64,000 bases of DNA from an uncultured Gemmatimonadaceae bacterium (GCA_963740355.1 CAVUDW010000001.1:1-64000); one strand, 5' to 3'. Shown: positions 16,714-47,047, counted from the first letter of the stretch. Notes: generated from the letters alone by a model not told the origin. Numbers and translations: made by a program.

Positions 16714-17535
16714 TCACCGTGGAATCGACTGCACCCAGCGATCGAGTCGCGTCAACAGCTCGGCGCGCTTTTGTGCGCTCGTGAAGACGTGATCGGCCGA
16801 ATACATCGTCTCGACCTCGATCTGCGACTCGGGCGCGCCAGGACCGAGCGTCTCGAACACCTGGCGCGGTGAGTTGAACCGGAAGTAGACCCCGCCGCTG
16901 TACACGAACAGCAGCCGTGCGCCGCGCGATGTCATCGCAAGCACATCCTTCCGGAACTGCGCCTCCGTGGGGTACTCGCGTTCAAAGACCGATTGTCCAT
17001 CGGTGTCCGAAATCAACGGACGATCACCACGCACGCGACGCTGGAGAAATCGCACCCAGCGTCCAAGCTGGAGCGGTCGCACGACGTAGTGTCGCACCTT
17101 GAAGCCGGTGCTCGGGTACGCGTAGCCGTCAATGAAGGCCGCCCCCACCACGCGCGGGTCGGTCGACGCGGTCGCGTGCGTGCTGTCGACACCGGAACAG
17201 AGACCGATCAACACGAACTCAGTGATACCGAGTGTCTCGGTGAGGAACTGCATCGCGTCGTCGAGATCGCGCGCTGCGCGAGCAGCCGGCGTCGGCGCGT
17301 CATGCCGCGGCGCACTATCGCCCATGCCCGCCAGGTCGAAGCGAAGCACGGGAAAGCCACTCGCCGCCAGCTTGCGCGCCAGCTCGACATAGATGCGGAA
17401 CGGGCCAACACGGTGATGCATGCCGATGTTCGACACGATCACGGCGCGGGCCGCACCCCGGGCTGGCGTCTTCGGCTCACTCAGCACACCGACCAGGCCA
17501 CCATGCGCGCCGAAGACGACCGCACGTTCGTTCAC
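16714..17535 (-). CDS. Alpha/beta-hydrolase-fold protein with Cys at the nucleophile elbow (similar to exosortase-A-associated hydrolase 1)
   Basis: HHRVGPFR.YV.LAR, LRFDLAGMGDS, GLCSG elbow, C-terminal ADHVF. Confidence 0.8.
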   Translation of the reverse strand: MNERAVVFGAHGGLVGVLSEPKTPARGAARAVIVSNIGMHHRVGPFRIYVELARKLAASGFPVLRFDLAGMGDSAPRHDAPTPAARAARDLDDAMQFLTETLGITEFVLIGLCSGVDSTHATASTDPRVVGAAFIDGYAYPSTGFKVRHYVVRPLQLGRWVRFLQRRVRGDRPLISDTDGQSVFEREYPTEAQFRKDVLAMTSRGARLLFVYSGGVYFRFNSPRQVFETLGPGAPESQIEVETMYSADHVFTSAQKRAELLTRLDRWVQSIPR

Positions 17536-18353
17536 GAGCCACTCCGGGCGAGGAATGTGGTGATGGCCACGGGGATGTTGTGTGACAGTAGCGTGTCGGC
17601 AGGATGGCGACCCGGCGCGTACATGGCCGGATCATCCACGCGCTCGACGGTCACCTTCAGCCCTGCCTCGATCAGACGCTGCTCGAGCGCGGATTGCGCC
17701 GGCGTAAACGCAGCACCGATCAGCAGCAGCCGATCGATCCGACCGACTTCCTCCTGCAACAAGTCGAGGCTGGCCATGTCTGCACGAACGTGGTCAGGAA
17801 ATGCATAGCCCATCACTTCCCCGTCGATACGATGATTCGGCTCCGGGTAGTTCAGCATGCGGAGGCGCACATCTTCGCTGGCATCGAGGGTGGCGACATA
17901 CTCCGTACCCGAGACCACCGGATCCCAGAGCACGAGGTCGCGCACCTTCACGCCCGACGCGCTCGCACGCAGCGCGACGGCGGCCCCGATCCGTGTCCCA
18001 ACCAGCGAGATGCGACGAATCCCCGCCAGGTCGCGCAGCTCGGAGACGGCCGTGCCCACATCTTCCGTCCACTGCGCCAGCGAACCTTCTGTGGCGTCGC
18101 CGTACGAATCACCGGTGCCGAAGTAGTCAAATCGTAGCACATGGAACCCTGCCGCTGCCAGCAGGCCGGCAAGCTTCTGGAAGGCCCAGTGCACCTGACT
18201 GTACTCGTGCGGGCCGGGATAGCAGAGGACGACGCCAGCATCGCGGATCGTCGCTCCGTCTGGAGCATGGTAGATCCCGAACAACTGGCGATCGGGCGAT
18301 CCGAAGAATCGCGGGACGATCTCAGAAGATTTCATGCTGGCGACGCTCGTCAC
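17532..18353 (-). CDS. Alpha/beta-hydrolase-fold protein with Arg at the nucleophile elbow (similar to exosortase-A-associated hydrolase 2)
   Basis: LRFDYFGTGDS.GD, GTRIG elbow, LVLWDPVVSG; 4-nt overlap with the next gene. Confidence 0.8.
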   Translation of the reverse strand: MTSVASMKSSEIVPRFFGSPDRQLFGIYHAPDGATIRDAGVVLCYPGPHEYSQVHWAFQKLAGLLAAAGFHVLRFDYFGTGDSYGDATEGSLAQWTEDVGTAVSELRDLAGIRRISLVGTRIGAAVALRASASGVKVRDLVLWDPVVSGTEYVATLDASEDVRLRMLNYPEPNHRIDGEVMGYAFPDHVRADMASLDLLQEEVGRIDRLLLIGAAFTPAQSALEQRLIEAGLKVTVERVDDPAMYAPGRHPADTLLSHNIPVAITTFLARSGS

Positions 18354-18377
18354 GTGCGTACCCGGGCGACAATTGTG

Positions 18378-19304
18378 TCAAACATTGCGAACGCCAGCCT
18401 TTGGAAGTCGAACCGAAGTGAATACATGTTCATCTTCGACGCAGAAGTCCGCCGTCAGCAACGTTCCGGAGTCGATCCCGGCTCCGAGGGATTCGACGAC
18501 CCGAAGCGCCATCGCTCCGCGTGCCACGTCGACCCATTCGACGGCAACCGCGTCGAAATCGAAAAATACACCCGTGATCGGGTGGAGGCACTTGTAGACA
18601 CTTTCCTTGGCGCTGAAGACGGCTGTGACAAAGGTGCGCCAATCCAGCCGCGCCGTAGGGTCGCCACGGCGGCCGATTGCGTCGCCTTCGGGGAGGACCC
18701 GGCCGAGAATGTCCTCGACGGCCGCATCATTCATCACGCGCTCGCAGTCGATCCCGATCCCGAGCGTCACCGACGCCCACGCGGCCACAGCGACGGCAAT
18801 GCGCGGGGAATGCGAGATCGAGCCCACGATCCCGGCCGGCCACACGGGTGCACCGAGCGCCCCGATCGGCAGCGGCTCGCGAATCAGCGCTGGCTCGCCG
18901 GTGAGCGAAAGAATCGCCTGCGCCGCACAGTGCCGGCCGGCGAGGTAGCCGCGCGCCCGTGACCGAACCGCGCGACCGAGCGACGAGGGAACGTCGTACC
19001 GGCACCGCTCGACGCGACCCGCGCGTGCTAAACGATCCGCATGCTCCGCGCCGCTATGGCCGGCTGCGTCGTTCCTCGCATCGATTTCGTGGAGGCTGAC
19101 AGCGTGTGTGGCGCCGAGCCCCCGGAATAATGCCGGAACCGGACGCGCCCCGAACAGTCGCAGGGTTTCTCCGAGACTGGGCGCGGCCGGCGCGCCCGTC
19201 GGGGCTTGCGCTGCCGTGCCCAGCCCTAGATTCGCGCAGACGGCGTCGCTGTGAACGCGATCCGCTCCCCCGCCCGACCCCTGTTCCGCCGCGTCACTCT
19301 GCAT
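18378..19304 (-). CDS. 4'-phosphopantetheinyl transferase (EntD/Sfp-type); true start may be downstream of 19304
   Basis: YLAGR.CA, P.WP.G..GSISHS, GIGIDCE, FSAKESVYK motifs. Confidence 0.88.
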   Translation of the reverse strand: MQSDAAEQGSGGGADRVHSDAVCANLGLGTAAQAPTGAPAAPSLGETLRLFGARPVPALFRGLGATHAVSLHEIDARNDAAGHSGAEHADRLARAGRVERCRYDVPSSLGRAVRSRARGYLAGRHCAAQAILSLTGEPALIREPLPIGALGAPVWPAGIVGSISHSPRIAVAVAAWASVTLGIGIDCERVMNDAAVEDILGRVLPEGDAIGRRGDPTARLDWRTFVTAVFSAKESVYKCLHPITGVFFDFDAVAVEWVDVARGAMALRVVESLGAGIDSGTLLTADFCVEDEHVFTSVRLPKAGVRNV

Positions 19305-20200
19305 GACTCTCCTACGACGCATTCTCGTCGCCGCCATCACGCTGTTCGTCGCCTGGCAGCTGTTCCACGGTGCGAGAGCGGCGCGATTCGAATACGCCAT
19401 CTTCCGCACCCCACGCAGCGTACCGTCCCGCCCGCCAGACGCGGAGGAACTTGGGCTGCAGGACGTGGAATTTCCATCCGCCGACGGCACGACTCTCAAA
19501 GGGTGGTATCTCCCCTCGAGCAACGGTGCCGCCATGGTGGTCGTGGGAGGAAGCGCTTCCACCCGTGACGGGATGCTGGATCACGCGCGGCTGCTCCATT
19601 CGGGCGGAACCGGCGTTCTGCTGTTCGACTGGCCTGGGTGCGGCGAGAGCGGCGGCCAGATCGGGGTCGGGCCGGGCGAACGGGCCGCCGTGTCTGGCGC
19701 CATCGGCTTCGTGGCCCAGCAGCCGGATGTTCGCGACGGAAGGATCGGGCTGCTCGGCTTCTCCCTGGGCGCCCACATGTCGTTCTTCGTGGCGGCCGCC
19801 GACTCGCGCGTCAGGATGCTGGTCGTTGAAGGCGTCTTCAGTGATCCGTGGAAGCAGGGCCTGGCGGAGTACCGCGATGGCGGCGTTGCAGCGCAGTGGG
19901 GTGCGCTGTTCGGTGACCTCCTTGGTGGGATGGACCGCAAGGTACTCGACGCTGCCGCGGCAGCAGCCGGCATCGCGCCGCGGCCATTCCTGGTCGTGGC
20001 CGGCGGCGCTGACCGCACGGTTCCGGTCGAACTCTCCCGGCAGATTTTCGACCTCGCCCGAGAACCAAAGAGTTTCTGGCTGATCGAGGGCGCCGGCCAC
20101 GGCGAATACCTGACCGCCGATCACGACCTACGGACCACGACTTCGACAGTTCGTCGAAGGGGCACTGGCCGCGACCGATGGCCGAGCCAGCACCCCCTGA
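19303..20200 (+). CDS. Membrane-anchored Ser alpha/beta hydrolase with an apparent +1 frameshift near 20120-20125 (as-is ORF runs to 20334)
   Basis: N-terminal TM; GFSLG / D(RTVP) / GAGH triad. The alternative frame gives a typical terminal helix TYGPRLRQFVEGAL...TGA at 20200. Confidence 0.78.
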
Positions 20201-20249
20201 CGTTTTTCCTGGACTCACCACGCAGGACGCCGCGTTACTCGTGGTCGGG

Positions 20250-23200
20250 TTATGAGATCAGTCCCTTCAGGCGCGAGAACATACCCGAGGATTCCTGCGC
20301 AGTGGCGGCACCGGAGGACGTGCTCGCTGACTGAGTCGCCAACTCCGCGGCCGCCTGCTCCAGCGTCCCCACCAACAGGGCACGAGGATTGAGGTGTCGT
20401 CCGGTCGATTTGCGCACCTGCTCCACCACGCGGAAGCAGAGCAGCGACGTTCCGCCCAACCGGAAGAAGTTGTCGAGTACACTCACCTGCTCCACACCCA
20501 GCGCCGCCTTCCAGGCTTCAGCGAGCATCGCCTCGCTTTCGTTTCGCGGTGCGACCTGCTGCACGGTGGCACTGGCCGCCGCTGCGAACGGAGAAAGCAA
20601 CGCCTCGTACCGCACCACGCCACGCGCGTCGATCGGCAGCGCACTGAGCTCCACGATCCGCTGCGGCACACAGCGACGTGGGAGGCGCGTGCGCGCTGAA
20701 GTACGCAGTTCCGTCTCGGTGTAACGCGCCCCAGGGCGCGGCACCACGTAGGCTACGACCCGCAACTTTCCGGAGGCGTCCGGATGCATCGCGACAGCCG
20801 CTTCTGCAACCGACGGGTGCTGGCGAACGGCCTCCTCGATTGCGGTGGAACTGCACGCCACGCCGTCACACCACACGGTCGCGAAGTCATTCCGAATGAG
20901 TTGGATGCGCCCATCCGAAACGCGACGCGCTCGAACGCCCGTCGCGACCTGCGCCACGCCGCGCGACACCCGAAGGCGACCTGGAATCCCGAAGGGTGAC
21001 TTCCGCCCGTCGGCGTCGACGACATCGAGGCTCGCGCCCGCGACGCCAAGCACATTGGCGTAACTCGTCCCGTCGGTTGTGCGGGCAGCCTGCACGCAGG
21101 TTGCCCCGCCGTCGGTCGGGAGGCCGAACAACGTGAAGGCCGACGTAACTCGCGTCACCAACTTCCACATGTCTTCGCCACTCGCGAAGGCACCTGCCAC
21201 CAGCACACCGCGGAAGGTCGCCGGTGCGCTCCAGGACGTCGCGAGCAGCTGCTGCCACAGTCCGCTGTTTGCGAACAGAACGGTTGCTCCAGAATCCTCG
21301 AGCTCATCGGACAACTCGGAGGCATCTTCGCGGGCATCATCTGACGCGACCACGAGCGTTGCGCCCGCGGTCAGCGGCGCGAGCATTTCGAGCACCGCAG
21401 AAGGAGCCCCGGCGGCAAGGGTGGTGACGACGCTGTCACTCGACTCGATCGCGAGCGCAGCGACGACGTCGCGTGCCTGCGCGGCCAGAAGTGAAGCGCC
21501 CACGGTATGTACCGCGAGTGAACCACCGGCCGCTGGAACGGCGACGAGCACGGATGGCGTCTCGCCTGCGACGCTCACGGCCGTCACCGGGCTCACGTCG
21601 AGCAAATCATCGATGGTCAGTTCATGCGCCACACCGAGGTCGTCGCTATCCCCGTCGGTGATGACCGCCACCAGCTTGGCTGCGGTCGCGACCTGACGGT
21701 GGTAGCCAGCGGCATCGTCCACGTCGAGCAGGAGCACTGCGGCGCCAGCGCCCACGGCACCGAGAGTCGCCACGACACGATCGATTCCGACGGGCAAGGC
21801 AATGCCGACTGGCGCGCCAGGCACGACGCCAGCCTTGGTCAGCCCGCCGGTCACCCGCTGGGCGCGAGAGATCAGTTCAGCGTACGAGATGGACTTTCCA
21901 TTCGCCCGTACGGCGACACGTTCAGGCGCCGACACCGCGATCCGTGCAATCGCCGGAGCCGGTGCCTCGGCGTCGGTCGTGACCGGTACGTCGTGTGCGG
22001 CACGGTCAGCCGCCGACGACAAGTCGATGCTGCCAACCGTTCGCTCCGGGTTCTCCAGCACCGACATGAGGAACGTTCGGAGCTGCACAAGGAACGTTTC
22101 GGCGGTCACACGTTCGAAGAGCTCGGTGCTGTAATTCAATACAGCATAAAGCTTTGTACGCGTGTCCATCATCCACAACATGAGATCATTGGTCGTGAAG
22201 TGCTGCGGCACGTGATACTGCTCCACGCGCAACGATCCCATCGCTGCTGGGCGCTCACGCGCGTCCTGCATCGAGAACAGGGCGCGTACCGGCGGCACTC
22301 GCGTGCCGAGCAGTTCGAACGGCAATTCCTGGTTGCTGAACGAATCGAGTGTCGTGTCACGCACGGCGCGCAACAGATCCGGGAAGGCGAGCGTGGGTGA
22401 CACCCGCGTCCGCAGCAGCACCGTGTTCACGAATGGACCAACGATGACCTCGAGCTCAGGACGTGTTCGCGCACGAACCGGTGAGCCAACCAGCAGATCT
22501 TCCTGCCCGGTGTAGTGATGCAGGATGACGTTATAGGCGGCGAAGACGACCATGAAGAGAGTCGCGTCGTACTTTCGTGCGAGCGCGCGAAGCTGGTCGG
22601 CTTCCTCGATCGTGAACGGAAGCGAGATCTGGTTGCCTGAGTTGTCCGATAGCGACGGCCGCGGGAAATCGGTTGGAAGCGCGAGGTCCTGCAGGTCGCC
22701 AGCCAGCTGCGCCCGCCACCACTCACCCTGCGCCTTGGCCTCAGGCCCGGCGAGCCAGCTCGACTGCCACGCGCTGAAGTCGCCATACGTCACGGGGAGG
22801 GCGTTCAGCACCGGCGCCCGCTTCTCTTCATCAGCGGCATAGAGCTCCGTCACTTCCTTGAGGAAGAGGTCGAAGCTCCAGCCGTCCCAGACCATGCCGT
22901 GCTGCAACGAGTACAGCAGGTGGTGCTGGTCAGCCAGCTTGAAAATGCACGCCCGATAAAGCGGCGCTACGGAGAGATCGAACGTCGTGTACTGCTGCTC
23001 CTGGAAATACGCGACCAGTGCTTCCTGCTGTGCAGCCTCGTCCAGTGCAGACAAATCGCGGCGATCGAGCTTGAAGGTGCTGGTCGGTGCAACGACCTGC
23101 CGGCGTTCGCCGTCGATGGTGTGGAAGCTGGTGCGCAGCGTGGCGTGGCGCGCGATCAGCGCGTCGAACGCACGCTCGAGCCGTCCGAAGTCGAGATCAC

Positions 23201-26200
23201 CGAACAGCCTCCACGACGCACTGTGTGCGTGCGCGGACCGTTGGGTTGGCTCCAGCTCCTCGAGCAGCCAGAGCCGCTCCTGCAGCACCGAGAGCGGTGC
23301 GACGGTCGCGTCAGGGCGATGCGGAATCGACTCGACGACCATCGGTGCCGAGAGCGGAGCGCCGCTGGCGCGCGACTGGTCGACCAGCGCGCCCAGCGCC
23401 CGCACCGTTGGAGCTTCGAAGATCTTCCGGAAGGACAACTGGATGCCGTGGTCGCGACGCAGTCGCGAGAGCACCTGCGATGCCAGCAGTGAATGCCCAC
23501 CAAGCGAGAAGAAGTCCGCGACGACGCTGACCTTCTCGAGCCCGAGCACCTCCGCCCACAATCCGGCGATGATCGTCTCGGCCTCCGTCGCGGGCGCGAC
23601 GAACTCACTTTCAGCCACTACTGCCGCACCGGCCTGCGGTGCGGGTAATGCCTTTCGGTCCACCTTGCCGCTGGGGGTCAGCGGCATCGCGTCCATGCGT
23701 ACGAAGGTGTAAGGCACCATGTAATCAGGCAGCGAGGCCTTGGCGAACGCCCGCAGCTTGTCCGAGATGACGTCGTCGGAATCGGTGACGAGATAGGCGA
23801 CGAGCCGGACGTCGTTGACGCGATCCTCGCGTGCGATCACAGCCGCCTCGCGCACCCCGTCCCACTTCATCAGCACCGCTTCGATCTCGCCCGGCTCGAT
23901 GCGGAAGCCTCGCACCTTGACCTGGTTGTCATTGCGGCCGAGACACTCCAGTTCCCCAGTCGGCAGCAGTCGGACCAAGTCACCGGTGCGGTAGATCAGC
24001 GCACCAGGGGTGGTCGGATCAGCGATGAATCGCTCGGCGGTCAGGTCCGGGCGATTGAGGTAGCCCTTGGTCACGCCGCGACCCGCAATGAACATCTCGC
24101 CCGGAACGCCGATCGGCGTCTGTTGTCCCTGCCCGTCGAGGATCTGTACCACGGTGTTCGCCACTGGCCGGCCAATCAAGACCTTCTTCACCGGCGACGT
24201 CACGCGCGCGAATGTCGACCAGACCGTGGTTTCAGTTGGCCCGTAGCCGTTCCACACTTCAGCCGCACATGAGGTGAGCGTCTCGGCAAGGTCCTTCGGC
24301 ATCGCTTCACCCGTGCAGATCACGCGGAGCTTGGCGTCACCCTTCCAGCCGGACGCGAGCAGCAGACGATAGGTCGCCGGGGTCGCATCGATGAAGGTGA
24401 CGCCGGTGGACTCGACGAGCTGCATCAGCATCGCGCCGTCGGATGCCACTTCGCGCGACGCAAGGACGATCCGTGCGCCAACGGTCAGCGGAAGGATGAC
24501 CTCCGAGACGGCGATGTCGAACGACAGAGTGGTGATCGCCAGCACGGTGTCGACGCTGCGGAGGCCCGGCTCGCGCTGCACACTGGCCAACAGGTTCACG
24601 ACCGATCGGTGAGGCACCAGCACACCCTTCGGCTTGCCAGTGGAGCCGGAGGTATAGATGACGTACGCCGTGTCTTCCGGCTGCGCCGAGCTAGCTGAAT
24701 CGACGGTATCCGCGTCTGGACAGGCGGCAATCGCCGCTGCGTCCGTATCGACGAGAACCGTTGCCGTAGCCGGCAGCGACACCTCCGACGCGATCCTCGA
24801 ATCCGTGATCAGGACCGCCAGGGCAGCGTCACTGGCCATGTAGCTGAGTCGATCTGCCGGATAGTTCGGGTCGAGTGGCACATAACCCGCTCCCGACTTC
24901 AGCGCAGCGACCAGCGCGACCAGCAGTTCAGGCGTGCGATCGAGGCACAGCCCAACGAGGGCACCAGGACGAACCCCCTTCTCGCGAAGCAAGTGCGCGA
25001 GCTTGTTCGCGCGACGGTTCAGCTCCGCATACGACACACGCGTGCCCTGGAACTCGATCGCAATCGCGTCAGGCGTTCGGGCTGCTTGCGCCTCGATCAT
25101 CCGATGCACCAGGGTCTCGGCAGGCAACGCGAGGCCGGTGTCGTTGCACGAGTCGAGCGCGGCGCGGTCGGCATCGGTCAGGATCGGCAGCGTCCCAACC
25201 GTCGCCGACGGGTTTGCCACGAACCCTTCCAGCAACCGCTCGTAGCTCTCAAGCCAGCGTCGAATCGTCGCGGCATCGAAGAGATCACTGTTGTACTGAC
25301 ACTCGAGAATCAGGCCGTCGTCGGTCTCGAGCGCATTCACGAAGAGATCGAAGTTCTCGAAGGCGCGCGGAATACTCACCATCTCGGCAGCGATGCCGTC
25401 AAACGGCATTGCCGACGCTGGCAGTGACCGATCGACGTTGAACATCACCGACACGAGCGGAATGCGGCTCGGATCACGCGGAAGTTGCAGACGCTCCAGC
25501 AGGCTTCCGAATCCAAGGCGCTGATGCTCGAACGCGTCCAGCGCCGTCGTCCGCACGGCAGCGAGATAGTCGCTGAACGCCGTCGTGCCCACGGGGCGGA
25601 CACGGATCGGAAGCATGTTGACGCAGTGCCCAACGAGTCCGGTGCGCCCAGACGCCGACTGTCCGGCGGACGGCACACCAAGCACCAGGTCATCCTGACC
25701 GGACAGACGGTGGACCAGTGTCGAGAAACCTGCCAGCAGCGTTGCGAACATGCTGCTGTTGGTCTTCATGCCAGCCGCGCGCACGGCGCGCGCCAGCTCG
25801 AGTGACAGCGTGCGGTCCTCGCGCCCGGCGTCGAATGTCTTCAGCGCTGGACGAGGACGGTCATTTGGCAGGTCGAGAACGGGCACCGAGCCCTTGTACT
25901 GATCCAGCCAGTACTTCTCATCCTCTGCGCGCTCCGCGCCGTGCGCCGCCTCGGCCGTTTCGCGGGCATAGTCGCTGAACGACTCTGCGGGCGCGAGGTT
26001 GGCGGATGTACCTGAGTGTCGCGCGTTGTAGAGCGCCGCCAGGTCGCTGCCGATGACTCCGAACGACCAGCCGTCACAGATGATGTGATGGGCCGACAGC
26101 ACGAGCTCGTGCAGCTCTGGTGAGAGCTGGAGCAGGCGCGCGCGAACCAGCGGCCCGTGCTCGAGATCGAACTCCTCGGTGACCACGCCGCGCAACACCG

Positions 26201-26561: not shown

Positions 26562-26582
26562 TTTTTGGTCCTTTCGCGATGA

Positions 26583-27422: not shown

Positions 27423-27433
27423 GTGCGCGGTCC

Positions 27434-27967
27434 TCAGGCGGCGGAAACAGTGATCGCGCCGAGGAATGCCCCGCGCCCAACCACCGCCAGAGTGCGTCGC
27501 GCAGCGGCGAGCGACGTGTCACCCAGCGGCACCACCAGCACACCGACATCGCAGCCACGGATGATCGGGACCGCGCTGTTGTCTTCCAGCGGCGATGCCA
27601 CCGCGACGATGGTGCGCTGGTCGAGCGCACTGCGATCACGCAGTTCGCCAATGATCCCCTGGACACGCGACGGTGGAACGCGCTCGGCCTCGATCAGACT
27701 CAGCGAGCCTTCGTCGTACGTCCGTCCTGCGTCAGCGAGCGCGCGCGCGACGGCGAGCACGGAGATGCCAGGGTGCGCCGGCACGAGCACCATCGAGCTC
27801 CAGCGATGTTGCGCGAAGGCGAACCAGACTGGCGGCCAGTCTTCAGGCCCTGCGACGATGTCGGGGCGCGCGATCAGGCGCACACCGTCGATCGACTCAG
27901 CTGGGACTACCTCATTGCGACGATCCATCTGAACTCCTGAAGGCTTTGGCTTATCGATGGTGATCAT
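27434..27967 (-). CDS. Stand-alone BY-kinase-like pseudokinase (CpsD/WzeX-like)
   Basis: P-loop-like secondary pattern (LVLV...ARALA, IVAV.SP, D..VLVV..G.T, FLGA) without the Walker A GK; position beside a kinase-less Wzc. Confidence 0.6.
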   Translation of the reverse strand: MITIDKPKPSGVQMDRRNEVVPAESIDGVRLIARPDIVAGPEDWPPVWFAFAQHRWSSMVLVPAHPGISVLAVARALADAGRTYDEGSLSLIEAERVPPSRVQGIIGELRDRSALDQRTIVAVASPLEDNSAVPIIRGCDVGVLVVPLGDTSLAAARRTLAVVGRGAFLGAITVSAA

Positions 27968-37417: not shown

Positions 37418-37818
37418 GAACGTGAGAACTGATTGAAGCCCACTACTCCTGCACGGCTTACTCAGCCTAGCACGGAGCACCGACACGATCGCTTACGTGT
37501 GTGTGCACCAATGACTGGTACGCCTGCAGGTTCGTAACGACGTAATCGAATCTACGTGCACCGACAGCTTGTCCAGCGAAGTGCCGGAATCCGAGCCCGA
37601 GCCGGTACACGACAGCTCACGTAAACGTTAGTAGTCTCAAACCTAGCGAAACCTTGCTCGGAATGCACCTCCGCACGCCTCCAGCACATCCATGCGAGAG
37701 GAACGCACCATGGCATCGTCGACTCTCATGTCGTCGCTGATCATCAGCACAGCAGCTGGCAGTATCGACACCTGCACGATGCGAAGCGACACAGGAGAAA
37801 TCCAGCGGACCCAGCCTT

Positions 37819-39090: not shown

Positions 39091-39161
39091 CGTCCCCCGA
39101 ATCTCGCCGCTGGCGCCAGTCGCCGCGGCCCCCTGCTGCGTTCCCCGACTTCCTCACGATC

Positions 39162-41606
39162 ATGCGCCTCGCCCCTCCGATTCTTCTTGCTGCCCTCGCC
39201 GTTGCAGGATGCAGATCAGGGGAGAAGCAACCGCCGCCAGAGACCCGGATCGCTTGCACTGCAGTCCGCGCAACGGCGTCGATCCATTGTCGCAATGCCG
39301 TCATCACCGCCTCCGGTGTGCCTGCCGTCGATCGCTCGGGAAGTGCGCTGCTCCTGACCGCCCAGGGCGTCGATGTTCGGGTGCTGACGAGCGCGATCAG
39401 CTGGACGGATACCGGTGTCAGCTTCGACGCCGCCATTCAGAATCTTGCCGGCCAACGGATCGGATCGAGCAACGGCGACACCGCGGATCCTCGCGGCATC
39501 CGCATGGTATTCGTCGCACCAGAGGCCGAGCTCGCAGGTGCCGCGGCGCCAGCTCAGGTGATTGCCGCACCGGTGGAAAGCAGTGTCACGGGCCGTGACA
39601 GTGTGACAGGAGCGTCGCAACCCTTCGTGAAGTTCGCCGCGCTGCTCGACAGCGGCGCAGTGACGGCACCCACGCGTGTGCAGCTCAGCATTCCCGCCAA
39701 TGCACCGTCTGCGACCTTTGCGCTCGTCGTCGTTGCTCCGGTGAAGCATCCCCATGGTTGGCTGCGCATTGCACCAGCTGCCGTGGTCGTGGCCATCGGA
39801 CGGCCGCGCACCCTCGAGGCCGAACTGCGCGATGCACTCGGGCGCGCGATGCCCTCCACCGCTGTCACCTGGTCGACGTCCACGATCGAGAACGCCGACG
39901 TCACCTCTGACGGCGCCGTCAACGGAAAGAAGACGGGCATCGCGCGGGTGATCGTGACCTGCGACGCACCATGTGCCGCCGCCGGCGATACGGCGCAACT
40001 GGCGATTACCGCGGCCGAAGGAGTGACGCTTGCGGTGCAGCCACGCGCGCAGCACGCCATTTCCCGTTTCGTCTACGGCATCAATTTCGCCACCGATGAC
40101 AGCATCAGCTCGGGCGGCGGTTCGCCCTGGTACGGCGCAAAGATACCCCGCCTCATGACTATCAATCGCGTCGGCGGCAATCGCATGTCGGCGTACAACT
40201 GGCGCACGAATTTCTCCAACGCCGGCAACGACTATCGCTTCCAGAACGACCGCTACATCTCGGGCAGCGACGTCCCGGGCGAGGCCATTCGCAGCCGGAT
40301 TGCGTCCACGCTCGATCGCGGCGCCGCCAGCCTGATCACGATTCCGATGCTCCCTTTCGTGGCGGCGGATGCCCAGGGAGAGCCACTCGACACACTTGGC
40401 TCGACACACGACGCGCGCATGAAAGCGCATTTCGTTCCCAATCGTGCATCGCGCAGCGATGGCGACGCTCCGGGGACGGTCTACCAGGATCAGTTCGTAC
40501 AATGGGTGGACAGCATGTTCCCCGCCGCACGAACCGACACACTGCGTCCAATCTTCTTCAGCCTCGACAACGAGCCGGACATCTGGCACGCGACGCATCG
40601 CGAAATCATGAGCGATACGCTCGGCAAGCCGCGGTACCAGACGTATGATGGATTCATCGGCACGAGCATCATGTTCGCGAAGGCTGCAAAGTCCGTTCGG
40701 CCGGGCACCGTGATCTTCGGGCCAGCGGTCGCCACCTACGCCGGCGTGATGACGCTCGGCCAGTACCCGACCAGCGATCCGGTGTACGGCAAGAGTCCGT
40801 TCTTCGAGATCTACCTCGACAAGATGCATGCTGCCGAACAGGAAGGTGGCCAGCGTCTGCTCGACGTGCTCGACCTGCATTTCTACCCGGCGACGGGAAC
40901 CAGCAACGGCGAGATCACGAACGATTGGGCGAAGCAGGACGAGGAGATGGCGGAGAAGCGCATCCAGGCACCGCGATCACTCTGGGACTCGACCTATGAC
41001 GAGAAGAGCTGGGTCTCCGATGTCACCGGTGGGCCAATCGCGCTCTTCCCTCGCTTGCGTGAGATGATTGCCGGGCACTACCCGGGGACGAAGATGGCCA
41101 TCACCGAGTACTACTACGGTCGCGGTGGCGACATCTCCGGAGGCCTCGCGCAGGCCGACGTGCTTGGGATCTTCGGGCGCGAAGGTGCCTTTGCCGCAAC
41201 CTTCTGGGGGCAGGCTGCCGTCGACACGTACGGCAACAGCGGCGAGCGCGCGTACGCGTATGCGTTCGGCGCGTTCCGGCTCTTCCGAGACTACGACGGC
41301 GCCGGTGGAAGCTTTGGTGACATCGGGCTTGGCGCGGCCAGCTCAGACAACAGGAAAGCCTCGATTTATGCCAGCCGGCGCGCCGACGGCCGCATCGTGC
41401 TGATCGTGATCAACAAGTCGCCGCTCGCGCTCGATGCGGATATCCCGATGACTTCCGGCCCGCAACCGAAGGGTGCTCAGACGTACACCATGCGTGACGG
41501 GGCACCGTCGCCGGTCCGCGGTCCCGACATCACGGTGCCGGCCGGTGGCTACCTGAGTTTCAAAATGCCGGCCCGCTCCGCAACAACGCTCGTACTCGAC
41601 CCCTGA
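39162..41606 (+). CDS. Lipoprotein with unknown N-terminal domain, Ig-like domain and glycoside hydrolase family 44 domain
   Basis: Lipobox VAGC; Big_2-like VTWST....A.V..DG.V; GGNRMSAYNW, SLDNEPD, YPGTKMAITEY. Confidence 0.88.
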   Translation: MRLAPPILLAALAVAGCRSGEKQPPPETRIACTAVRATASIHCRNAVITASGVPAVDRSGSALLLTAQGVDVRVLTSAISWTDTGVSFDAAIQNLAGQRIGSSNGDTADPRGIRMVFVAPEAELAGAAAPAQVIAAPVESSVTGRDSVTGASQPFVKFAALLDSGAVTAPTRVQLSIPANAPSATFALVVVAPVKHPHGWLRIAPAAVVVAIGRPRTLEAELRDALGRAMPSTAVTWSTSTIENADVTSDGAVNGKKTGIARVIVTCDAPCAAAGDTAQLAITAAEGVTLAVQPRAQHAISRFVYGINFATDDSISSGGGSPWYGAKIPRLMTINRVGGNRMSAYNWRTNFSNAGNDYRFQNDRYISGSDVPGEAIRSRIASTLDRGAASLITIPMLPFVAADAQGEPLDTLGSTHDARMKAHFVPNRASRSDGDAPGTVYQDQFVQWVDSMFPAARTDTLRPIFFSLDNEPDIWHATHREIMSDTLGKPRYQTYDGFIGTSIMFAKAAKSVRPGTVIFGPAVATYAGVMTLGQYPTSDPVYGKSPFFEIYLDKMHAAEQEGGQRLLDVLDLHFYPATGTSNGEITNDWAKQDEEMAEKRIQAPRSLWDSTYDEKSWVSDVTGGPIALFPRLREMIAGHYPGTKMAITEYYYGRGGDISGGLAQADVLGIFGREGAFAATFWGQAAVDTYGNSGERAYAYAFGAFRLFRDYDGAGGSFGDIGLGAASSDNRKASIYASRRADGRIVLIVINKSPLALDADIPMTSGPQPKGAQTYTMRDGAPSPVRGPDITVPAGGYLSFKMPARSATTLVLDP

Positions 41607-41639: not shown

Positions 41640-42260
41640 TCAGTTGACGATGTCGGCGCTGCGACCGCGAGTCCGAACCGTCGCAGCCGGCACTTCGACC
41701 ACGCTGTTGGCGGGGACGGAGGTCATCACGACGGCGTTGGCCATGATCTTGGTGCCACGCCCAATCGTGATCGGGCCGAGCAAGGCGGCGCCTGGCCCAA
41801 CGTGCACATCTTCCTCGAGCGTCGGGCCACCTACCTCGCGCGTGATCGGGTCGATGCTCACGCCAAGCGTCACCGACTGGAAGAGAATGCACCCGGCGCC
41901 GACCACCGCTTCCCGACTGAGCACGAGTGCCGTGCCGTGCACCAGCGCCACGCCTGGCGCGAGGTCCGCGTCCCAGTGAATTTCGGCGCCATAGATGTGG
42001 CGAATCAGTCGCGACACGATCATCGCCAGCGGTGTCAATCGCAGCGCCAGAAGCAGTCGCATGAAGCGGTAGGCGACCATCATCTGGAACCCAATCTTCT
42101 TGAACGAGTCGACGAAGATCGAACTCGAACGACCGGCTGGCTTGTTGCCGTACTTGGTATCACCGCGCACCACGGCATCGTGATCGGCACGGACACCAAT
42201 TACAAAGCTGCGGAATGGTCCCACCCGTCGGGCGGGGAGCGACTCCGTCATGGTGCCCAT
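41640..42260 (-). CDS. Serine O-acetyltransferase-like LbH protein (EpsC-like)
   Basis: YGAEIH..A....G....HG, Q.VTLG, P.L...V.VG.GA..LG.ITIG....I.ANAVV. Confidence 0.82.
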   Translation of the reverse strand: MGTMTESLPARRVGPFRSFVIGVRADHDAVVRGDTKYGNKPAGRSSSIFVDSFKKIGFQMMVAYRFMRLLLALRLTPLAMIVSRLIRHIYGAEIHWDADLAPGVALVHGTALVLSREAVVGAGCILFQSVTLGVSIDPITREVGGPTLEEDVHVGPGAALLGPITIGRGTKIMANAVVMTSVPANSVVEVPAATVRTRGRSADIVN

Positions 42261-42285
42261 GTGGTGCGCCTCGAATTCGCCCGTG

Positions 42286-43053
42286 TCATTCCGCGGCCGC
42301 AGCAGCTTCGAGGATCGGTACGAGATCCGCCACCGAATGCACCCGCGACATCGCTTCACTGCCAAGGCTGACGCCGAAGGCAAACTCGAGCGAAAGCAAC
42401 AGGTTCAACATGCCGAGCGAGTCCCACTGCTCGATTTCATCGCGCGCTGCATCGGCTGCGGGCGCTTGCGCCAGGCCAAAGGTATGTCCCACCACATCAC
42501 GCACCGCCTCGATGTCGATCTCGCGCGAACCGGCGGTCGCATCTCGATCCGATTCCGGGCGAGCCGGGTTGCCAGCGTATCGGGCGCCTGCAGGTACATC
42601 ACCCTTCACCACGCTGCCTGGGGCGACCACGGCACCTTCGCCAATCGTCGACCCGCGCAAGACAACGACGCGCGCGCCGAGCCGTGCCTTCCGACCAATG
42701 TGAATCGCGCCTGTGGAGCCGGCAGAATCATGTTTGCCGGCTTCGTGAAAGTCCGTATCCATCAGCATGACGAACGGGCCAAGCGTCGCACCATCCCCGA
42801 TCACGATGGTTTCGTGCGAGGCGATGGCTGCCCCATGCCCGATAAAGACGCCCTCGCCGATCGTGAGGTTGCCGATCGGCCCCGTCACGAGGTGCGACAT
42901 GGCCGGTGTCGAGCGCACAAGCACCCCTCGACCGAGCGAGATCCGACCAAGGTTCTGCACGTGAAGATTTCCCTCGACCACAACCCCCTGGCCGACGACA
43001 GTGCAGGCCTTCAGCTGGCGGCGGCTACGGAACGCCTGCCACGCGGAGTTCAT
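42286..43053 (-). CDS. LbH acyltransferase fused to a C-terminal acyl carrier protein
   Basis: MDTDFH and hexapeptides ending AGNPAR; ACP motif WDSLGMLNLLLSLE.AFGV. Confidence 0.85.
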   Translation of the reverse strand: MNSAWQAFRSRRQLKACTVVGQGVVVEGNLHVQNLGRISLGRGVLVRSTPAMSHLVTGPIGNLTIGEGVFIGHGAAIASHETIVIGDGATLGPFVMLMDTDFHEAGKHDSAGSTGAIHIGRKARLGARVVVLRGSTIGEGAVVAPGSVVKGDVPAGARYAGNPARPESDRDATAGSREIDIEAVRDVVGHTFGLAQAPAADAARDEIEQWDSLGMLNLLLSLEFAFGVSLGSEAMSRVHSVADLVPILEAAAAAE

Positions 43054-45413
43054 GCGCTCACCGCATTCGCATGCGGGGCGTCCACCCAGTCGATCGCGAT
43101 GCCACGGGGACTCGGGAATGGCTGTTCACAGTCCCACGTGAAGAGCGTGCCATCGGCGTTGCGGCTCAACTCCGACGCCAGCAACAGGTCGTGGCACGGC
43201 TTGTTCTTGGAGGTCTTGAGGTAGGCCGCGTGCAACTCCTTGAGCCCGCGGCTGCGTGCCCACTCCGTGGCCAGGTGCAGCATGGCGTGCTCGATACGGC
43301 GACCCATCACGCGACAACTGAGCACGAAGTCCACCACGTGACCGATGCCGTCACGCTCCTCGACGCTGAGGATGCCAGTGAGGCCCGCCGAACCAAACTT
43401 GTCGGCCACCGTGATGGCCCACAGCGCGTGGTTCGGGTCAGCATTCCACTCCAACAGCTCAGCCTCACTCTGACGGCGCGTGGTGAGGTTCATCTGGTTG
43501 GTCTTGTTCAGCAACTGTGCCGTGCGCGTGATGTTCGCGGCGTCGAGCGGCTCGACTCGCACCGCAATGCCAAGGCTCTCGAGCCACTCATCGATCGATC
43601 CGACGTTGGCCTTCACAGCTCCACGTTCACGTTCCGCAGCGTACAACGCGGTGCGCTCAGCATCCTCAGCACTGATGGCCGGTGTGTCGAAGCATCGCAG
43701 CCCGAGCAGTCGCTCCGTGTAGAGCAGCTTGTCTTCAGGCCACTCGGGTACGAAGACCTCGGAAAGTGTCTCGCGAACGCGCGCGCGCTCGACCGGGTTG
43801 TCGTCGATGAACACCACCGACTGCAGGCCAAGATTCAGCTCGGCCGCGAGGTCGGCGATGTTCTGCGCCTTGTCCGACCAGTTGATCCGCCAGCCGACGA
43901 AATCCTTCTTCCGAAGCACCATCTGCGGATGATTCTCGATCGCCTCGAGGGCCACGCTCTCGGTGTTCTTGCTCACGATGCCCAGCACGACGCCGCGCCT
44001 CGTGAGCGCCTTCACCGCGTGCTGGAAATCCACGAAGGACTCACCGACGCCGTCGTGGCCGCCCAGCTGCAGATTCTCCCAGCCGATGTCGCCCACGATG
44101 CCACCCCACATCGTGTCGTCGAGATCGAGCACGAGCAGCTTGCGCGCCTGGCCCGAGAGCGCCCTGGCCGCGGCCTTCAGCTCCTGCGCAACTTCCGCGA
44201 AGAGTTCCGCGGAGTACGGGACCTTGCCGAGATACCAGCCCTTGGCCATGGAGCGGCCACGCATCGCCGTCGCTTCGAGCCACCGCTGCGCATTCATGAC
44301 GTACACATTCGGCACAGTCGCCAGTTGCGACATCAGGCGCGCGTTCGCGATCGTGAGCGCCCACGTCAGGCCACCGGGACGTGCATCGATGAGGCCGAGT
44401 CCGCGCTGGTGCGACGGCAGGCTCCACGTGGGTACGAAGACGAAGCGATACGACTCGGCGCCGCGGCGAACCAGCTCGGTGAAGGCATCGACGTCGGCGA
44501 GCAACTCAGCCTCGGTGGCACCGTCACCACGGACGATGCGATCGAAGGCGGGCAGCGCGAGTTCCGGTCGCGTCCAGACCAGCACGAAGTCCGCGGCATC
44601 GCTCGGCGGCCCGCTGAGCAGGCCTTGCGTCGTCTGACAGAACGGCGCGTCGGCGACTTCCATCACCGGTGCGTCGGCTGCATCAGAGAGGCGCACCGCG
44701 AGATCACCGACGGTGAAATCGGCCAGCACCATGCCACGCAGTGGCTTCGATGACACGGCCGGCAGGATGTCGCGCACGGTGCCGCTCGCGTTCGGCTTGC
44801 GCGGGGCGGCAGCGGCTGTCGGGGCAGCGGTGTCGTCCAGTGCACGGATCACGCGCGCGGGAATACCGCCGGCGATCACTCCGTCGGGGATGTTGCCAGA
44901 GACGATCGAGCCCGCGGTGATGACGGCGTTGGCACCGATCGTCGTGCCGGGAAGCACCGTGACGCGACCGGCCAGCCAGGTGCCGGCACCGATGCGAATT
45001 GGCGCAGTGGTACCCAATTCGGCGGTCAGGTCGGTGTCGTCGATGATGCAGTACGGGCCGATGCTGACATGGTCGCCGAGCGTGACCTGCTCTGCCGCGC
45101 GAATCGACGTGCCGTAGTTGACGTGCACACCATCACCGATGTCGATCACAGCGCCTTGCTGCGCGACGAGTTCGACTGGGCTGAAGGTGCTGGTGAACGC
45201 GAGGTCGCTCCCGATGCGAATCTCACCCGCGTTGATGATCCGTGGCTGCCCGACCGTCCGGGCGCGTGGTCCAACCCGGGTCACGTCCTTGAGATACAGC
45301 GGCGCGAGGACCGATCCGAACACATAGCGCACGCCTTTGCGGGCACGCTCAGCGAGCGGGAGGTCACTGTCGCGCTGCAGGCTGCGCTTAACTTTTTCGA
45401 CGAAGGCGTTCAT
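43050..45413 (-). CDS. fkbH: FkbH-like (HAD-IIIC) glyceryl transferase with an N-terminal LbH acyltransferase domain
   Basis: LDLDDTMWGG, SKN, INW..K, FIDDNPVER, KTNQ.NLTT, D.FG..G, LSCR..GR; N-terminal hexapeptides ending GGIPARVIR. Confidence 0.9.
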   Translation of the reverse strand: MNAFVEKVKRSLQRDSDLPLAERARKGVRYVFGSVLAPLYLKDVTRVGPRARTVGQPRIINAGEIRIGSDLAFTSTFSPVELVAQQGAVIDIGDGVHVNYGTSIRAAEQVTLGDHVSIGPYCIIDDTDLTAELGTTAPIRIGAGTWLAGRVTVLPGTTIGANAVITAGSIVSGNIPDGVIAGGIPARVIRALDDTAAPTAAAAPRKPNASGTVRDILPAVSSKPLRGMVLADFTVGDLAVRLSDAADAPVMEVADAPFCQTTQGLLSGPPSDAADFVLVWTRPELALPAFDRIVRGDGATEAELLADVDAFTELVRRGAESYRFVFVPTWSLPSHQRGLGLIDARPGGLTWALTIANARLMSQLATVPNVYVMNAQRWLEATAMRGRSMAKGWYLGKVPYSAELFAEVAQELKAAARALSGQARKLLVLDLDDTMWGGIVGDIGWENLQLGGHDGVGESFVDFQHAVKALTRRGVVLGIVSKNTESVALEAIENHPQMVLRKKDFVGWRINWSDKAQNIADLAAELNLGLQSVVFIDDNPVERARVRETLSEVFVPEWPEDKLLYTERLLGLRCFDTPAISAEDAERTALYAAERERGAVKANVGSIDEWLESLGIAVRVEPLDAANITRTAQLLNKTNQMNLTTRRQSEAELLEWNADPNHALWAITVADKFGSAGLTGILSVEERDGIGHVVDFVLSCRVMGRRIEHAMLHLATEWARSRGLKELHAAYLKTSKNKPCHDLLLASELSRNADGTLFTWDCEQPFPSPRGIAIDWVDAPHANAVSA

Positions 45414-45490
45414 AGGAGACAGGACGGTTGCGCGTGCCCCCGGGTCACGGGTGCCCGCGGCAGCAGATGAGTCTTGTCAGGGCGGGCTGA

Positions 45491-47047
45491 TCACAGTGCA
45501 CCATCCATTCGGATGACGGCCGGCAGGGTTCGAGCCAGAATCATCGCGTCTCGAGCAAATGACCAGTCAGCGATATACGCCGACTCGAGCTGGATGACCT
45601 CTTCGAAGTGCACGATCCGGTTCCTCCCGGACACCTGCCATGGCCCGGTCAGCCCCGGCCGCACATCGAGGCGCACCAGGTGGCGCTCGGCGTACCTGGC
45701 GACCTCATCAGGAAGCGGGGGCCGAGGGCCAACCAATGACATCTCGCCGCGCAGCACGTTCCAGAATTGCGGCAGCTCGTCGAGACTGGTGCGCCGAAGG
45801 AACGCGCCGAGGCGCGTGATTCGCGGGTCGTGGGCGATCTTGAAGAGGGGCTCCTCGCCGTAGACGTTGCGAGCGCGCAACTCTTCCTGCTGCTCCTCGG
45901 CGGAGGCGATCATGCTCCGGAACTTCCACATGTGGAAGTGGCGGCCGCCCTGCCCCACGCGCACCTGCTTGAACAGCGCGGGTCCGCGTGACGTCACACG
46001 AACGGCGAGCGCGACCAGCAGGTACACCGGCGCCAGCAGGATCAGCAGCATGGACGAGATCGTGATGTCCATCGCTCTTTTCACCACCAGCTGGCGACCG
46101 CGTTCACCAGGGCGAACGAGCCGCATCAGTGGGTCGCCGTGGTGGAACACGAGCTGCGGCTCGAAGCCATGCAGCGCGACCGTGCGCGGCAGGCAGACGA
46201 CGTTGCATCCCGCCGCATCGGCCACGCGTGCGAGGCGTTCGGCCAGCGGCTCGCTCAAGTGTCCGAACAGCACCACCGTATCGGCGCGATGTTCGTCGAT
46301 GAGTCGCATCATGGCACTGGTCGGGCCGAGAGGGCCATCCGAGTGCTCGATGCGCGTCGTGTCGACTTCACCGACGAAGCGGAATTCCGTCGGGTCGGCG
46401 AAGGCGGGATTCGAACGCCCCGCGCGCAGGTCGCGGGTCGGCGCCACCAGGATGGTTCGCAATGCGAGCGTGGCCCGCGGGCGGATCCGTTCGACGACGA
46501 TGTCCAGGACCAGTCGAACGGCCACCAGTGTCGCCGCAATCGCGAGTCCGACGAAGGCGACGCCGAACAGCCGGGACAGGTCAGGCGGCGTAAAGAGATC
46601 GGTCCAGGTGACGAACAGGACGCCTAGCACAGCGCCCATGGCCACGCTGCGAATGTGTCGCTTGCGGGCGCCGCCGACGTAACCGCCACAGATCGTCAAG
46701 CCAAGCAGCACCGCGACCTGCAGAGGGACCGCCGGTACGGCTCCGGCCGGTACAATGGTCGCCAGTGCGGTCGCGATACGTGGGCCGAACCAGGCCTGGT
46801 CGCGTGCAGCCGAGAGAATGATGCGAAGGATCTCGAGCGTCAGGAGGTCGGCGCAGACGAGCACGAACACCCGAAGCATGCTTCGCCAGACGTGCCGCCA
46901 CACCGCATGCGGCGCTCGGGCATGGAGGATTTCCGGCAGTGGAACGCCGTTGTATCTGGAGTCGTCTGACGGACGGAACAGTGGAAGCGGGTCTGTCGAG
47001 CGCCTGCGCTGCCGCGACCGTGCTGACGGGGGCGGAGGGGGTGTCAT
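45491..47047 (-). CDS. Polyprenyl glycosylphosphotransferase (WcaJ/WbaP/EpsZ-type priming transferase)
   Basis: N-terminal TMs, CoA-binding-like domain, [38 protein letters not shown]. Confidence 0.92.

Follow-up and report, generated by a model that had tools for sequence, protein, structure and literature searches.

Why should a gene for a nonribosomal peptide synthetase (NRPS) close a run of exopolysaccharide (EPS) genes? The question is posed by a stretch of 64,000 nt from an uncultured Gemmatimonadaceae bacterium (GCA_963740355.1, CAVUDW010000001.1:1-64000), here called the window, where a first-pass annotation made from the sequence alone had proposed that positions 16714-47047 encode an NRPS and acyl carrier protein (ACP) assembly line built into an EPS operon. 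The NRPS gene was found to belong to the EPS locus, in which it is tightly packed, and the association is conserved and occurs in several arrangements within the genus. The outcome we favour, with a probability that we see as evenly balanced, is that a polyketide synthase (PKS) and the NRPS make a carrier-bound beta-amino-lipo-amino acid and that a pair of hydrolases transfers this to a glycan intermediate. Genomes of the genus and loci carrying related genes are cited below by our own numbers (G and L, respectively), with G000 being the genome that contains the window.

The NRPS and the EPS gene run

Genes were called from a scan for open reading frames (ORFs) combined with Pfam and NCBIfam profile searches, and 53 ORFs in the window were scanned. 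The G+C content of the window is ~65% and polysaccharide genes are abundant across the whole 64 kb. The run of interest occupies the minus strand from 37486 to 20250 and consists of ten genes, beginning with that for a GlmU-like protein and ending with that for the NRPS, which is 2103 aa long. In order of transcription they are:

36155-37486, minus: GlmU-like sugar-1-phosphate nucleotidyltransferase with hexapeptide acyltransferase (LbH) domain, first of the run (NTP_transferase 41.5 bits; Hexapep)
34383-36158, minus: hexapeptide (LbH) domain fused to a polyprenyl-phosphate sugar-phosphate transferase (PGT) (Bac_transf 198.5 bits; TIGR03025 248.7 bits, below the cut-off of 295.55)
33223-34386, minus: putative outer-membrane beta-barrel, partner of the short OPX protein (weak BBP2_2 match, 22.9 bits, cut-off 23.7)
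32529-33203, minus: short OPX export protein, EpsY-like (Poly_export 64 bits; SLBB; NF041843 EpsY 181 bits, cut-off 320)
30764-32307, minus: PCP-2 co-polymerase without a kinase domain, EpsV-like (NF041864 EpsV matches both pieces)
29160-30767, minus: Wzy repeat-unit polymerase (Wzy_C 37.1 bits; NF041870 354 bits, cut-off 670)
27964-29163, minus: GT2 glycosyltransferase, EpsU-like (NF041865 489 bits, cut-off 700)
27434-27967, minus: EcpK-like tyrosine pseudokinase of 177 aa (no family match; structure model)
26583-27422, minus: WecG/TagA glycosyltransferase of family GT26, EpsA-like (Glyco_tran_WecG 196.6 bits)
23355-26561, minus: NRPS module 1, with condensation (C1), adenylation (A1) and carrier (T1) domains (HHxxxDG intact, all A core motifs, GGHS)
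20250-23354, minus: NRPS module 2 (C2, A2, T2), without a thioesterase (TE) domain (C2 His replaced by Gly, A2 degenerate, T2 Ser kept)

The junctions, derived by hand from the ORF coordinates, comprise six 4-nt overlaps and gaps of 19, 221, 11 and 21 nt. Both the gene list of the first-pass annotation and its description of a tight minus-strand run agree with the ORF, Pfam and NCBIfam results. The last of the gaps separates the WecG stop codon from the ATG of the NRPS, and the spacing given earlier, with its ribosome-binding site, could be read directly (AAAGGA, 7 nt before the ATG). A scan of 16000-35900 for promoters and terminators gave nothing exceeding shuffled controls. The EPS parts seen are the PGT, glycosyltransferases (GTs), Wzy, a kinase-less PCP, a pseudokinase, a short OPX protein and a barrel; no Wzx was found within 16.7-47 kb, the sole Wzx gene of the window lying at 2984-4492 in a separate cluster. 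No thioesterase family was reported for the NRPS and no exporter family among the scanned ORFs, in line with the first-pass annotation.

Two genes of the run needed closer attention. The best Foldseek match of the AlphaFold2 model of the 177-aa protein (pLDDT 77) is the Wzc tyrosine-kinase domain (3la6, E 1e-5, TMq 0.64) and no Walker A motif was seen in its sequence. This fold and the missing motif match the protein to the EcpK pseudokinase, and the earlier call of a pseudokinase therefore holds. Its gene adjoins the GT2 gene in every relative locus compared. The gene previously listed as Wzc is indeed a co-polymerase gene, of the EpsV-like PCP type, and its description has to be amended by two frameshifts, since the single intact ORF of G009 aligns to it in frames -2, -3 and -1. 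These may mark a pseudogene or be indel errors in the assembly.

Four other genomes of the genus (G001, G009, G014 and G015) share the gene order of the window-type locus, and the arrangement of NRPS and EPS genes is therefore beyond chance. In the first three of these the GlmU-like gene occupies an equal position (70-75% identity) and the barrel gene likewise adjoins that for the OPX protein.

Pfam finds two Condensation, two AMP-binding_C and two PP-binding stretches in the NRPS. In module 1 the Condensation, AMP-binding and PP-binding scores are far over the cut-offs, and the motifs SAHHIICDG, NGYGPTE, YRTGD, PSGKVDR and GGHS and a P-loop of the SGSTGKPKG type are all present. The corresponding C2 motif is QHGMVWDG, in which Gly takes the place of the catalytic His, and this is invariant in six orthologues. 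None of the A2 motifs A3 (P-loop), A5 (NxYGPTE) and A7 (YRTGD), nor the A10 Lys, was found in the window or in five aligned orthologues from the genus (L002-L005 and L008). Judged by these motifs module 2 cannot activate an amino acid, and because A2 is without the P-loop and the A10 Lys no second amino acid would be activated, so that the dipeptide product proposed earlier is not supported. The T2 Ser is retained despite this degeneration. C2 is densely conserved across orthologues and A2 is not, and module 2 therefore seems to be kept for a reason. The protein stops just past T2, leaving no TE or reductase domain for release in cis.

Some lineages of the family keep the HH of C2 beside a dead A2; in the clade of the window the His is gone as well, replaced by G, N, R or A. 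The adenylation codes, taken at positions of the GrsA numbering (unrelated NRPS loci gave recognisable codes), are DILQLGMVWK or DILQLGLVWK in both modules of most family loci, which we take to be glycine-like, and the A1 code in the window's clade is DISDITGVWK. The occurrence of a dead A2 beside an A1 of like specificity suggests that A1 may load both carriers, T1 and T2.

The proposed acyl donor and release hydrolases

Orthologues of module 2 (41-63% identity) were found in 8 of the 19 other genomes of the genus and in none of 21 genomes of other genera. In two of them a gene for a FAAL-ACP-KS-AT-ACP-class III aminotransferase protein abuts the NRPS gene upstream (2403 aa in G016, 2222 aa in G004) and hyd2-hyd1, the hydrolase pair described below, follows; G012 and the metagenome locus L050 have equal PKS-NRPS linkage. 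The window's own genome contains an orphan gene with the same FAAL-ACP-KS-AT-ACP-aminotransferase content on another contig (G000:C2:931525-938050, L043/L044; 2235 aa, 48-55% identical), where its neighbours are GGDEF/EAL, HD-GYP, recF-like and TonB-like genes. This PKS is likely to be the trans partner of the window's NRPS. At a threshold of at least 52% identity the aminotransferase part was detected in all nine NRPS-bearing genomes of the genus and in 1 of 11 without the NRPS (G018, 87% complete), and was not found in the remaining 10, though these relatives are not independent.

The same architecture recurs more widely. A scan of metagenomes with generic patterns, sorted afterwards by tblastn, yielded 78 loci, most of which encode the PKS, then an NRPS of C-A-T-C-A-T order, often followed by hyd2-hyd1. 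In one branch (L066, L067, L069, L088, L092 and L115) C2 is intact and A2 dead, and the NRPS gene is immediately followed by genes for a PF01522 deacetylase with a long N-terminal extension, Wzy_C and several GT4 enzymes; the hyd2/hyd1 pair was not found within 10 kb in these six loci. The cassette family is widespread, and the NRPS, hyd1, hyd2, hyd3 and phosphopantetheinyl transferase (PPTase) would be its peptide and release half. A limited literature search found neither an account of this family of PKS, NRPS and hydrolases nor one of its link to polysaccharide loci.

The first-pass annotation had looked elsewhere for the acyl donor, to a second operon, in which the PGT, FkbH and EpsC-like acetyltransferase genes are confirmed:

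45491-47047, minus: full-length PGT, EpsZ-like (TIGR03025 332.5 bits, cut-off 295.55)
43050-45413, minus: fusion of a hexapeptide acyltransferase, an unassigned middle and an FkbH/HAD-IIIC domain (TIGR01686 275 bits, cut-off 146.65)
42286-43053, minus: hexapeptide acyltransferase with an ACP-like C-terminal tail, WDSLG (Hexapep 49.5 bits; PP-binding E 0.063, 14 bits)
41640-42383, minus: EpsC-like protein of the serine O-acetyltransferase family (NF041874 102 bits, cut-off 150)

In that scheme FkbH would load a glyceryl group onto the ACP, a starter C domain would N-acylate an amino acid with it, and a dipeptidyl-T would pass to the EPS repeat unit. The FkbH domain scores well over its cut-off, the ACP-like tail is encoded next to it, in G001, G009 and G014 the FkbH gene is, as in the window, ~20 kb away from that for the NRPS, and FkbH-like matches occur near 3 of the 78 metagenome loci (L065, L114 and L117). 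We nevertheless regard this route as very improbable. FkbH orthologues (71-88% identity) occur only in G001, G009, G014, G015 and G018 and were not found in G004, G006, G012 and G016, which bear the NRPS (completeness 90, 94, 88 and 94%, respectively), and what the NRPS co-occurs with, and often abuts, is the FAAL-PKS-aminotransferase. A2 offers no second amino acid, and the ACP fusion described earlier does have its C-terminal tail but with a PP-binding match that is below significance. As four of the nine NRPS-bearing genomes are without a detected FkbH, the FkbH module travels with the EPS-locus type and not with the NRPS; we read FkbH, the ACP-like gene and the acetyltransferase gene as an acyl-decoration module of the EPS locus in its own right.

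Downstream of the NRPS gene lie four further genes:

19303-20334, plus: hyd3, Ser hydrolase of the alpha/beta type with a hydrophobic helix at its N terminus (Hydrolase_4 37.8 bits; BAAT_C 22 bits)
18378-19562 (longest ORF), minus: Sfp-type PPTase, domain at residues 195-348 (4PPT_N 60.2 bits; ACPS 33.3 bits)
17532-18353, minus: hyd2, pseudo-hydrolase of alpha/beta fold with Arg at the nucleophile position (TIGR03101 90.3 bits, cut-off 202.75)
16714-17535, minus: hyd1, alpha/beta hydrolase with a Cys nucleophile (TIGR03100 87.8 bits, cut-off 168.45)

The hyd1 and hyd2 genes are adjacent with a 4-nt overlap, and both TIGR matches are full-length. In 13 sequences compared, the hyd1 nucleophile elbow (GLCSG) with Cys113, D197 and D248-H249 is invariant, and the G-x-R-x-G of hyd2 is present in 12. 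The two proteins are predicted to bind as a heterodimer, with a complex score of 0.88 against 0.00 for the best of three controls; 116 of 157 solved complexes attain this mark, as do 2 of 215 mismatched pairs, counts that are rough because custom alignments were used. Prediction runs agree in at least 84% of contacts, the pLDDT of the partner is at least 86, and the interface covers the His249 region of hyd1. Searches of the hyd1 and hyd2 sequences against solved structures, and a fold search with the hyd1 model, returned generic esterases and lipases only, and the homologues of hyd1 (1234 clusters at E <=1e-10) are all generically named. TIGR03100 at E 1e-30 had no match in 201 sampled genomes of the phylum.

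A second NRPS/PKS cluster of the same genome is also trailed by such a pair. The pair therefore has the look of a device by which lines without a TE release their product, and hydrolases acting in trans would explain an NRPS without a TE. That large cluster with its hyd2/hyd1-type pair (G000:C2:251000-300000 and 264458-265716) includes one big ORF with an in-frame TGA.

The hyd3 gene is convergent with the NRPS gene and overlaps its 3' end by 85 nt. Relatives stand beside the NRPS in G004, G006, G009, G014, G016 and L045-L050 (35-63% identity, 37% for the neighbour gene in L049), so that hyd3 is conserved alongside the cassette in the clade with a degenerate module 2; it was not found in G001. 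Relatives of the PPTase align only from residue 129-140 of the longest ORF, and its true start is probably near 19175 because the part of the ORF upstream of this is antisense to hyd3. A long N-terminal PPTase domain was considered and rejected, its apparent conservation being an antisense shadow of hyd3, and minus-strand ORFs of 270 aa or 145 aa in the gap between NRPS and PPTase were discarded on the same grounds. A PPTase and two odd hydrolases are thus present downstream, as first described, but with the plus-strand hyd3 gene between NRPS and PPTase the PPTase-hyd2-hyd1 group is not simply the tail of the run.

Given a C2 and an A2 without catalytic residues, two frameshifts in the PCP gene and a PKS gene on another contig, the locus might be taken for a decaying remnant that makes nothing functional in this genome, and the NRPS gene of G004 has two in-frame stops. 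This appears very unlikely to us. Five of the eight orthologues in the genus (G001, G006, G009, G014 and G016) are open and full-length at 2100-2230 aa, and those of G012 and G015 are cut by contig ends but free of stops. The altered C2 motif is invariant among densely conserved C2 columns, the catalytic residues of hyd1 and the T2 Ser are kept, and the PCP frameshifts may lie in the assembly. The degenerate module 2 layout is also found in a Myxococcaceae metagenome-assembled genome (MAG) and in several metagenome loci, and so appears to be an old and maintained state.

Polysaccharide linkage and the proposed product

In 34 of the 78 metagenome loci (30 were left out as short or near-duplicate) the association with polysaccharide genes was surveyed by running Pfam on the ORFs outside the core and counting Wzx, Wzy_C, OPX, PCP, PGT, GT2, GT4 and deacetylase genes within 10 kb. 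Such genes were near 15 of 17 family loci with the hydrolase pair and 13 of the 16 assessable loci (of 17) with PKS and NRPS where the pair was not found. At least one was present in 28 of 33 family loci and at least two in 24, compared with none in the 13 assessable of 16 generic NRPS loci used as controls (14 from metagenomes, two from genomes), which hold only 30 scorable ORFs. Two of the control loci carry macrolide-type GTs. The first-pass proposal would have suffered had NRPS homologues rarely neighboured EPS genes, and the opposite was found. In the window's own genome home-built profiles detected 50 polysaccharide genes, and of random 16-20 kb intervals 8-10% contain one or more and 3% two or more, a base rate that comes from a single genome and a detection differing from that of the Pfam survey. 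A tblastn control with 15 polysaccharide proteins of the window was discarded in favour of profiles as too insensitive (0/16 where Pfam finds genes). The direction of the enrichment is certain and its size uncertain, because the detection methods differ and several loci share their layout by descent.

The linkage also survives rearrangement, with the cassette being EPS-linked in a different order in G016, L032, L050 and L053. In G016, Wzy is followed by PKS, NRPS, hyd2-hyd1 and then WecG and more GTs, while the EPS genes of L032 are convergent with the cassette. In the Myxococcaceae MAG (L033) GT4 and Wzy_C genes lie 1-4 kb downstream of it. G012 and L034 were not judged for EPS linkage as their contigs end. 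Neighbours that recur in the family are Wzx, Wzy_C, GT4, the PF01522 deacetylase, PGT, DUF218 and GINT1_N; in L074, L086, L060 and L061 a canonical cassette has beside it a DUF218 protein and a Wzx-type flippase that either is fused to a GINT1_N-like domain or adjoins one.

A pathway can be drawn from these elements. The FAAL-ACP-KS-AT-ACP-aminotransferase encoded on the other contig would activate a fatty acid, add one malonyl unit and aminate the beta-keto group, in the manner of the iturin/mycosubtilin loading module, and C1 would condense the resulting beta-amino-acyl chain with the amino acid that A1 has placed on T1. Module 2 would activate nothing and act as a conserved scaffold whose carrier, T2, is still live. 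The hyd1/hyd2 heterodimer would accept the chain in thioester linkage to hyd1 Cys113 and pass it to an acceptor rather than simply to water, the acceptor most likely being a lipid-linked sugar intermediate of the polysaccharide whose synthesis the same operon encodes. The outcome would be a lipo-aminoacylated polysaccharide, anchored or surface-active. Transfer to a glycan is suggested by the gene linkage, by a Cys nucleophile with a dead partner and by the order of deacetylation then acylation that is implied in many family loci. While domain content, degenerate motifs, catalytic residues, conserved polysaccharide linkage, PKS co-occurrence and predicted hyd1-hyd2 binding were observed or computed, every chemical step and the identity of the acceptor are what we infer from them.

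The main competing explanation is that the product is a lipo-amino acid that is free or resides in the membrane (as an aminolipid, a surfactant or a signal), made from genes that are co-located and co-regulated with EPS genes for life in biofilms or on surfaces, with no covalent bond and a hydrolase cleaving the thioester. There is literature precedent for lipo-amino acid genes beside EPS genes, in a passage of PMC7293339 that cites Craig et al. 2011. The Wzx-type flippases that often flank the family might carry lipids just as well as glycans, and hyd3 is an ordinary Ser hydrolase with a weak match to an acyl-CoA thioesterase (BAAT_C). We consider this explanation rather unlikely, because the NRPS gene follows a glycosyltransferase gene by only 21 nt, the polysaccharide linkage spans phyla as well as rearrangements, and deacetylase and Wzy_C genes often come directly after the NRPS, which fits a logic of sugar N-acylation or ligation. 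From general enzymology, a Cys nucleophile with a dead partner presumably fits acyl transfer better than hydrolysis.

Several observations nonetheless weigh against transfer of the chain to a glycan, in addition to the small control set and the single-genome base rate given above, and some of them favour the free aminolipid. No polysaccharide genes were found in the DNA examined around the cassettes of G004, which lies beside an RND efflux pump and other NRPS genes, and G006, which lies beside housekeeping genes, and 5 of the 33 metagenome loci are likewise without polysaccharide neighbours. The relatives are not independent, several family loci representing one layout. The PKS partner is unlinked in this genome and the PCP gene is frameshifted. 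With its catalytic His missing, C2 offers no obvious route for the chain to T2. A single transcript is not assured, as hyd3 separates the NRPS gene from PPTase-hyd2-hyd1, and simple hydrolysis by hyd3 could free the product. The covalent bond to the glycan is conjectural.

A broader version of glycan transfer, which we advance tentatively as possible, would see here a widespread class of glycoconjugates in Gemmatimonadota, Acidobacteriota, Myxococcota and other soil bacteria. In this class the PKS-NRPS would build a carrier-bound beta-amino-lipo-(di)peptide and the heterodimer of Cys-hydrolase and pseudo-hydrolase would be a carrier-to-sugar transacylase. The product would be a lipidated polysaccharide, or else a lipopeptide anchor that is glycosylated, flipped by Wzx and ligated by a Wzy_C/WaaL-like enzyme, and the window would hold a trimmed form in a Myxococcus-type EPS operon.

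If the link is functional, NRPS/PKS chemistry would be a regular source of a surface-polysaccharide building block in abundant and little-studied soil phyla, and what genome-mining tools list as an orphan lipopeptide cluster would in part belong to a glycoconjugate pathway. The paired hydrolases of exosortase-type EPS loci, catalogued long ago and still unexplained, would gain a possible role, and a carrier-protein-to-glycan acyl transferase made from a Cys hydrolase and its dead paralogue would be added. Lipidated polysaccharides are relevant to biofilm cohesion, soil aggregation and emulsifier biotechnology. As two cultured carriers of the cassette, Gemmatimonadetes bacterium T265 and Aggregicoccus sp. 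17bor-14, are on record, the question is directly testable.

Surrounding genes and comparison with known systems

Three further genes border the EPS genes described above:

14953-16692, plus: GH44 glycoside hydrolase, EpsB-like, convergent with hyd1 and in equal position in G009 and G014 (Glyco_hydro_44 156.6 bits)
37819-39090, plus: Acyl_transf_3 membrane acyltransferase, divergent from the EPS run and absent from the first-pass annotation (92.1 bits)
39036-41606, plus: second GH44 hydrolase, EpsB-like (Glyco_hydro_44 129 bits; NF041873 209 bits, cut-off 1250)

The remainder of the window is also rich in polysaccharide genes. A separate, complete-looking Wzx/Wzy cluster occupies 303-11505 on the plus strand, with an 888-aa multi-SLBB OPX protein, Wzx, GT2, Wzz, Wzy, GT9, GT4 and Acyl_transf_3, and two tandem genes for DUF1996 proteins (11539-14204, minus) stand between the polysaccharide clusters. 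Two divergent genes for Wzi-like capsule assembly proteins (47195-48853, minus, and 48879-50573, plus) have weak Pfam scores. A bacillosamine-like sugar set at 52289-63642 includes a DegT aminotransferase, a small PglC-like PGT, a PglD_N-hexapeptide acetyltransferase and an epimerase, together with three SDRs, a Trm112-methyltransferase fusion and a CoA-transferase.

A close parallel is with a cassette in the EPS loci of XrtA/PEP-CTERM systems, which we take to consist of an acyl-CoA ligase (TIGR03098), an ACP, a PLP decarboxylase, hydrolase 1 (TIGR03100) and hydrolase 2 (TIGR03101). We know of no function assigned to it, and no study of this ligase/ACP/hydrolase cassette was found in a limited literature search. 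Both have two adjacent, unlike alpha/beta hydrolases beside an adenylating enzyme and a carrier in an EPS locus; TIGR03100 and TIGR03101 are the best full-length matches of hyd1 and hyd2, respectively, and the A1 region also matches TIGR03098. They differ in that the hyd1 and hyd2 scores are about half of the curated cut-offs, an NRPS and a PKS stand where the cassette has the ligase, ACP and decarboxylase, and there is no exosortase nearby, the only one in the genome being far off on contig C2.

The classical route to an N-terminal beta-amino fatty acid is the MycA-type loading module of iturin and mycosubtilin synthesis. The order FAAL-ACP-KS-AT-ACP-aminotransferase ahead of C-A-T is that seen in G016 and G004 and in the orphan gene of the window's genome. 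Here only one or two modules follow, with no TE, no peptide of macrocycle size and a polysaccharide context. In the synthesis of Nod factors (NodB, NodF/NodE, NodA) and lipid A (LpxC/LpxD) an amino sugar is deacetylated and then N-acylated from a carrier. The PF01522 deacetylase genes directly after the NRPS in many family loci are reminiscent of this, although no PF01522 gene is among the window ORFs scanned, and, with no NodA or LpxD homologue seen, hyd1/hyd2 would have to be the transferase. For D-alanylation of the Dlt type, Pfam detects no MBOAT or DltD family among the window ORFs, and the DltA match is that of a generic adenylation domain.

Eight genes of the window have their best matches among the Eps models (EpsA, U, V, Y, Z, B, C and Wzy_EPS), all with scores below the equivalog cut-offs and in a host that belongs to the Gemmatimonadaceae. 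According to passages of the sources cited, in the EPS system of Myxococcus xanthus the kinase-less PCP EpsV is partnered by the pseudokinase EcpK (PMC12004946) and the gene for a short OPX protein is next to a barrel gene (PMC9601211); these passages make no mention of an NRPS, a PPTase or a hydrolase pair in the eps clusters of Myxococcus.

Megasynthases embedded in polysaccharide loci are also known. The rkpA/wcbR PKSs probably make the lipid part for a polysaccharide, and they differ from the present system in being PKS only, in capsule loci of the ABC-transporter type, with no NRPS, aminotransferase or hydrolase pair. Their type I PKS genes lie among rhizobial and Burkholderia genes for capsule biosynthesis and export, as stated in PMC3908369. 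Genes that encode synthases of N-acyl amino acids habitually lie beside EPS genes in PEP-CTERM loci, and a functional link has been suggested (PMC7293339). Those synthases are single GNAT-like enzymes using acyl-ACP, in contrast to a PKS-NRPS, a beta-amino fatty acid and dedicated release hydrolases here. The earlier statement that no characterised pathway has this gene set was accordingly too strong, the XrtA cassette, the N-acyl amino acid synthases and rkpA/wcbR all being comparable.

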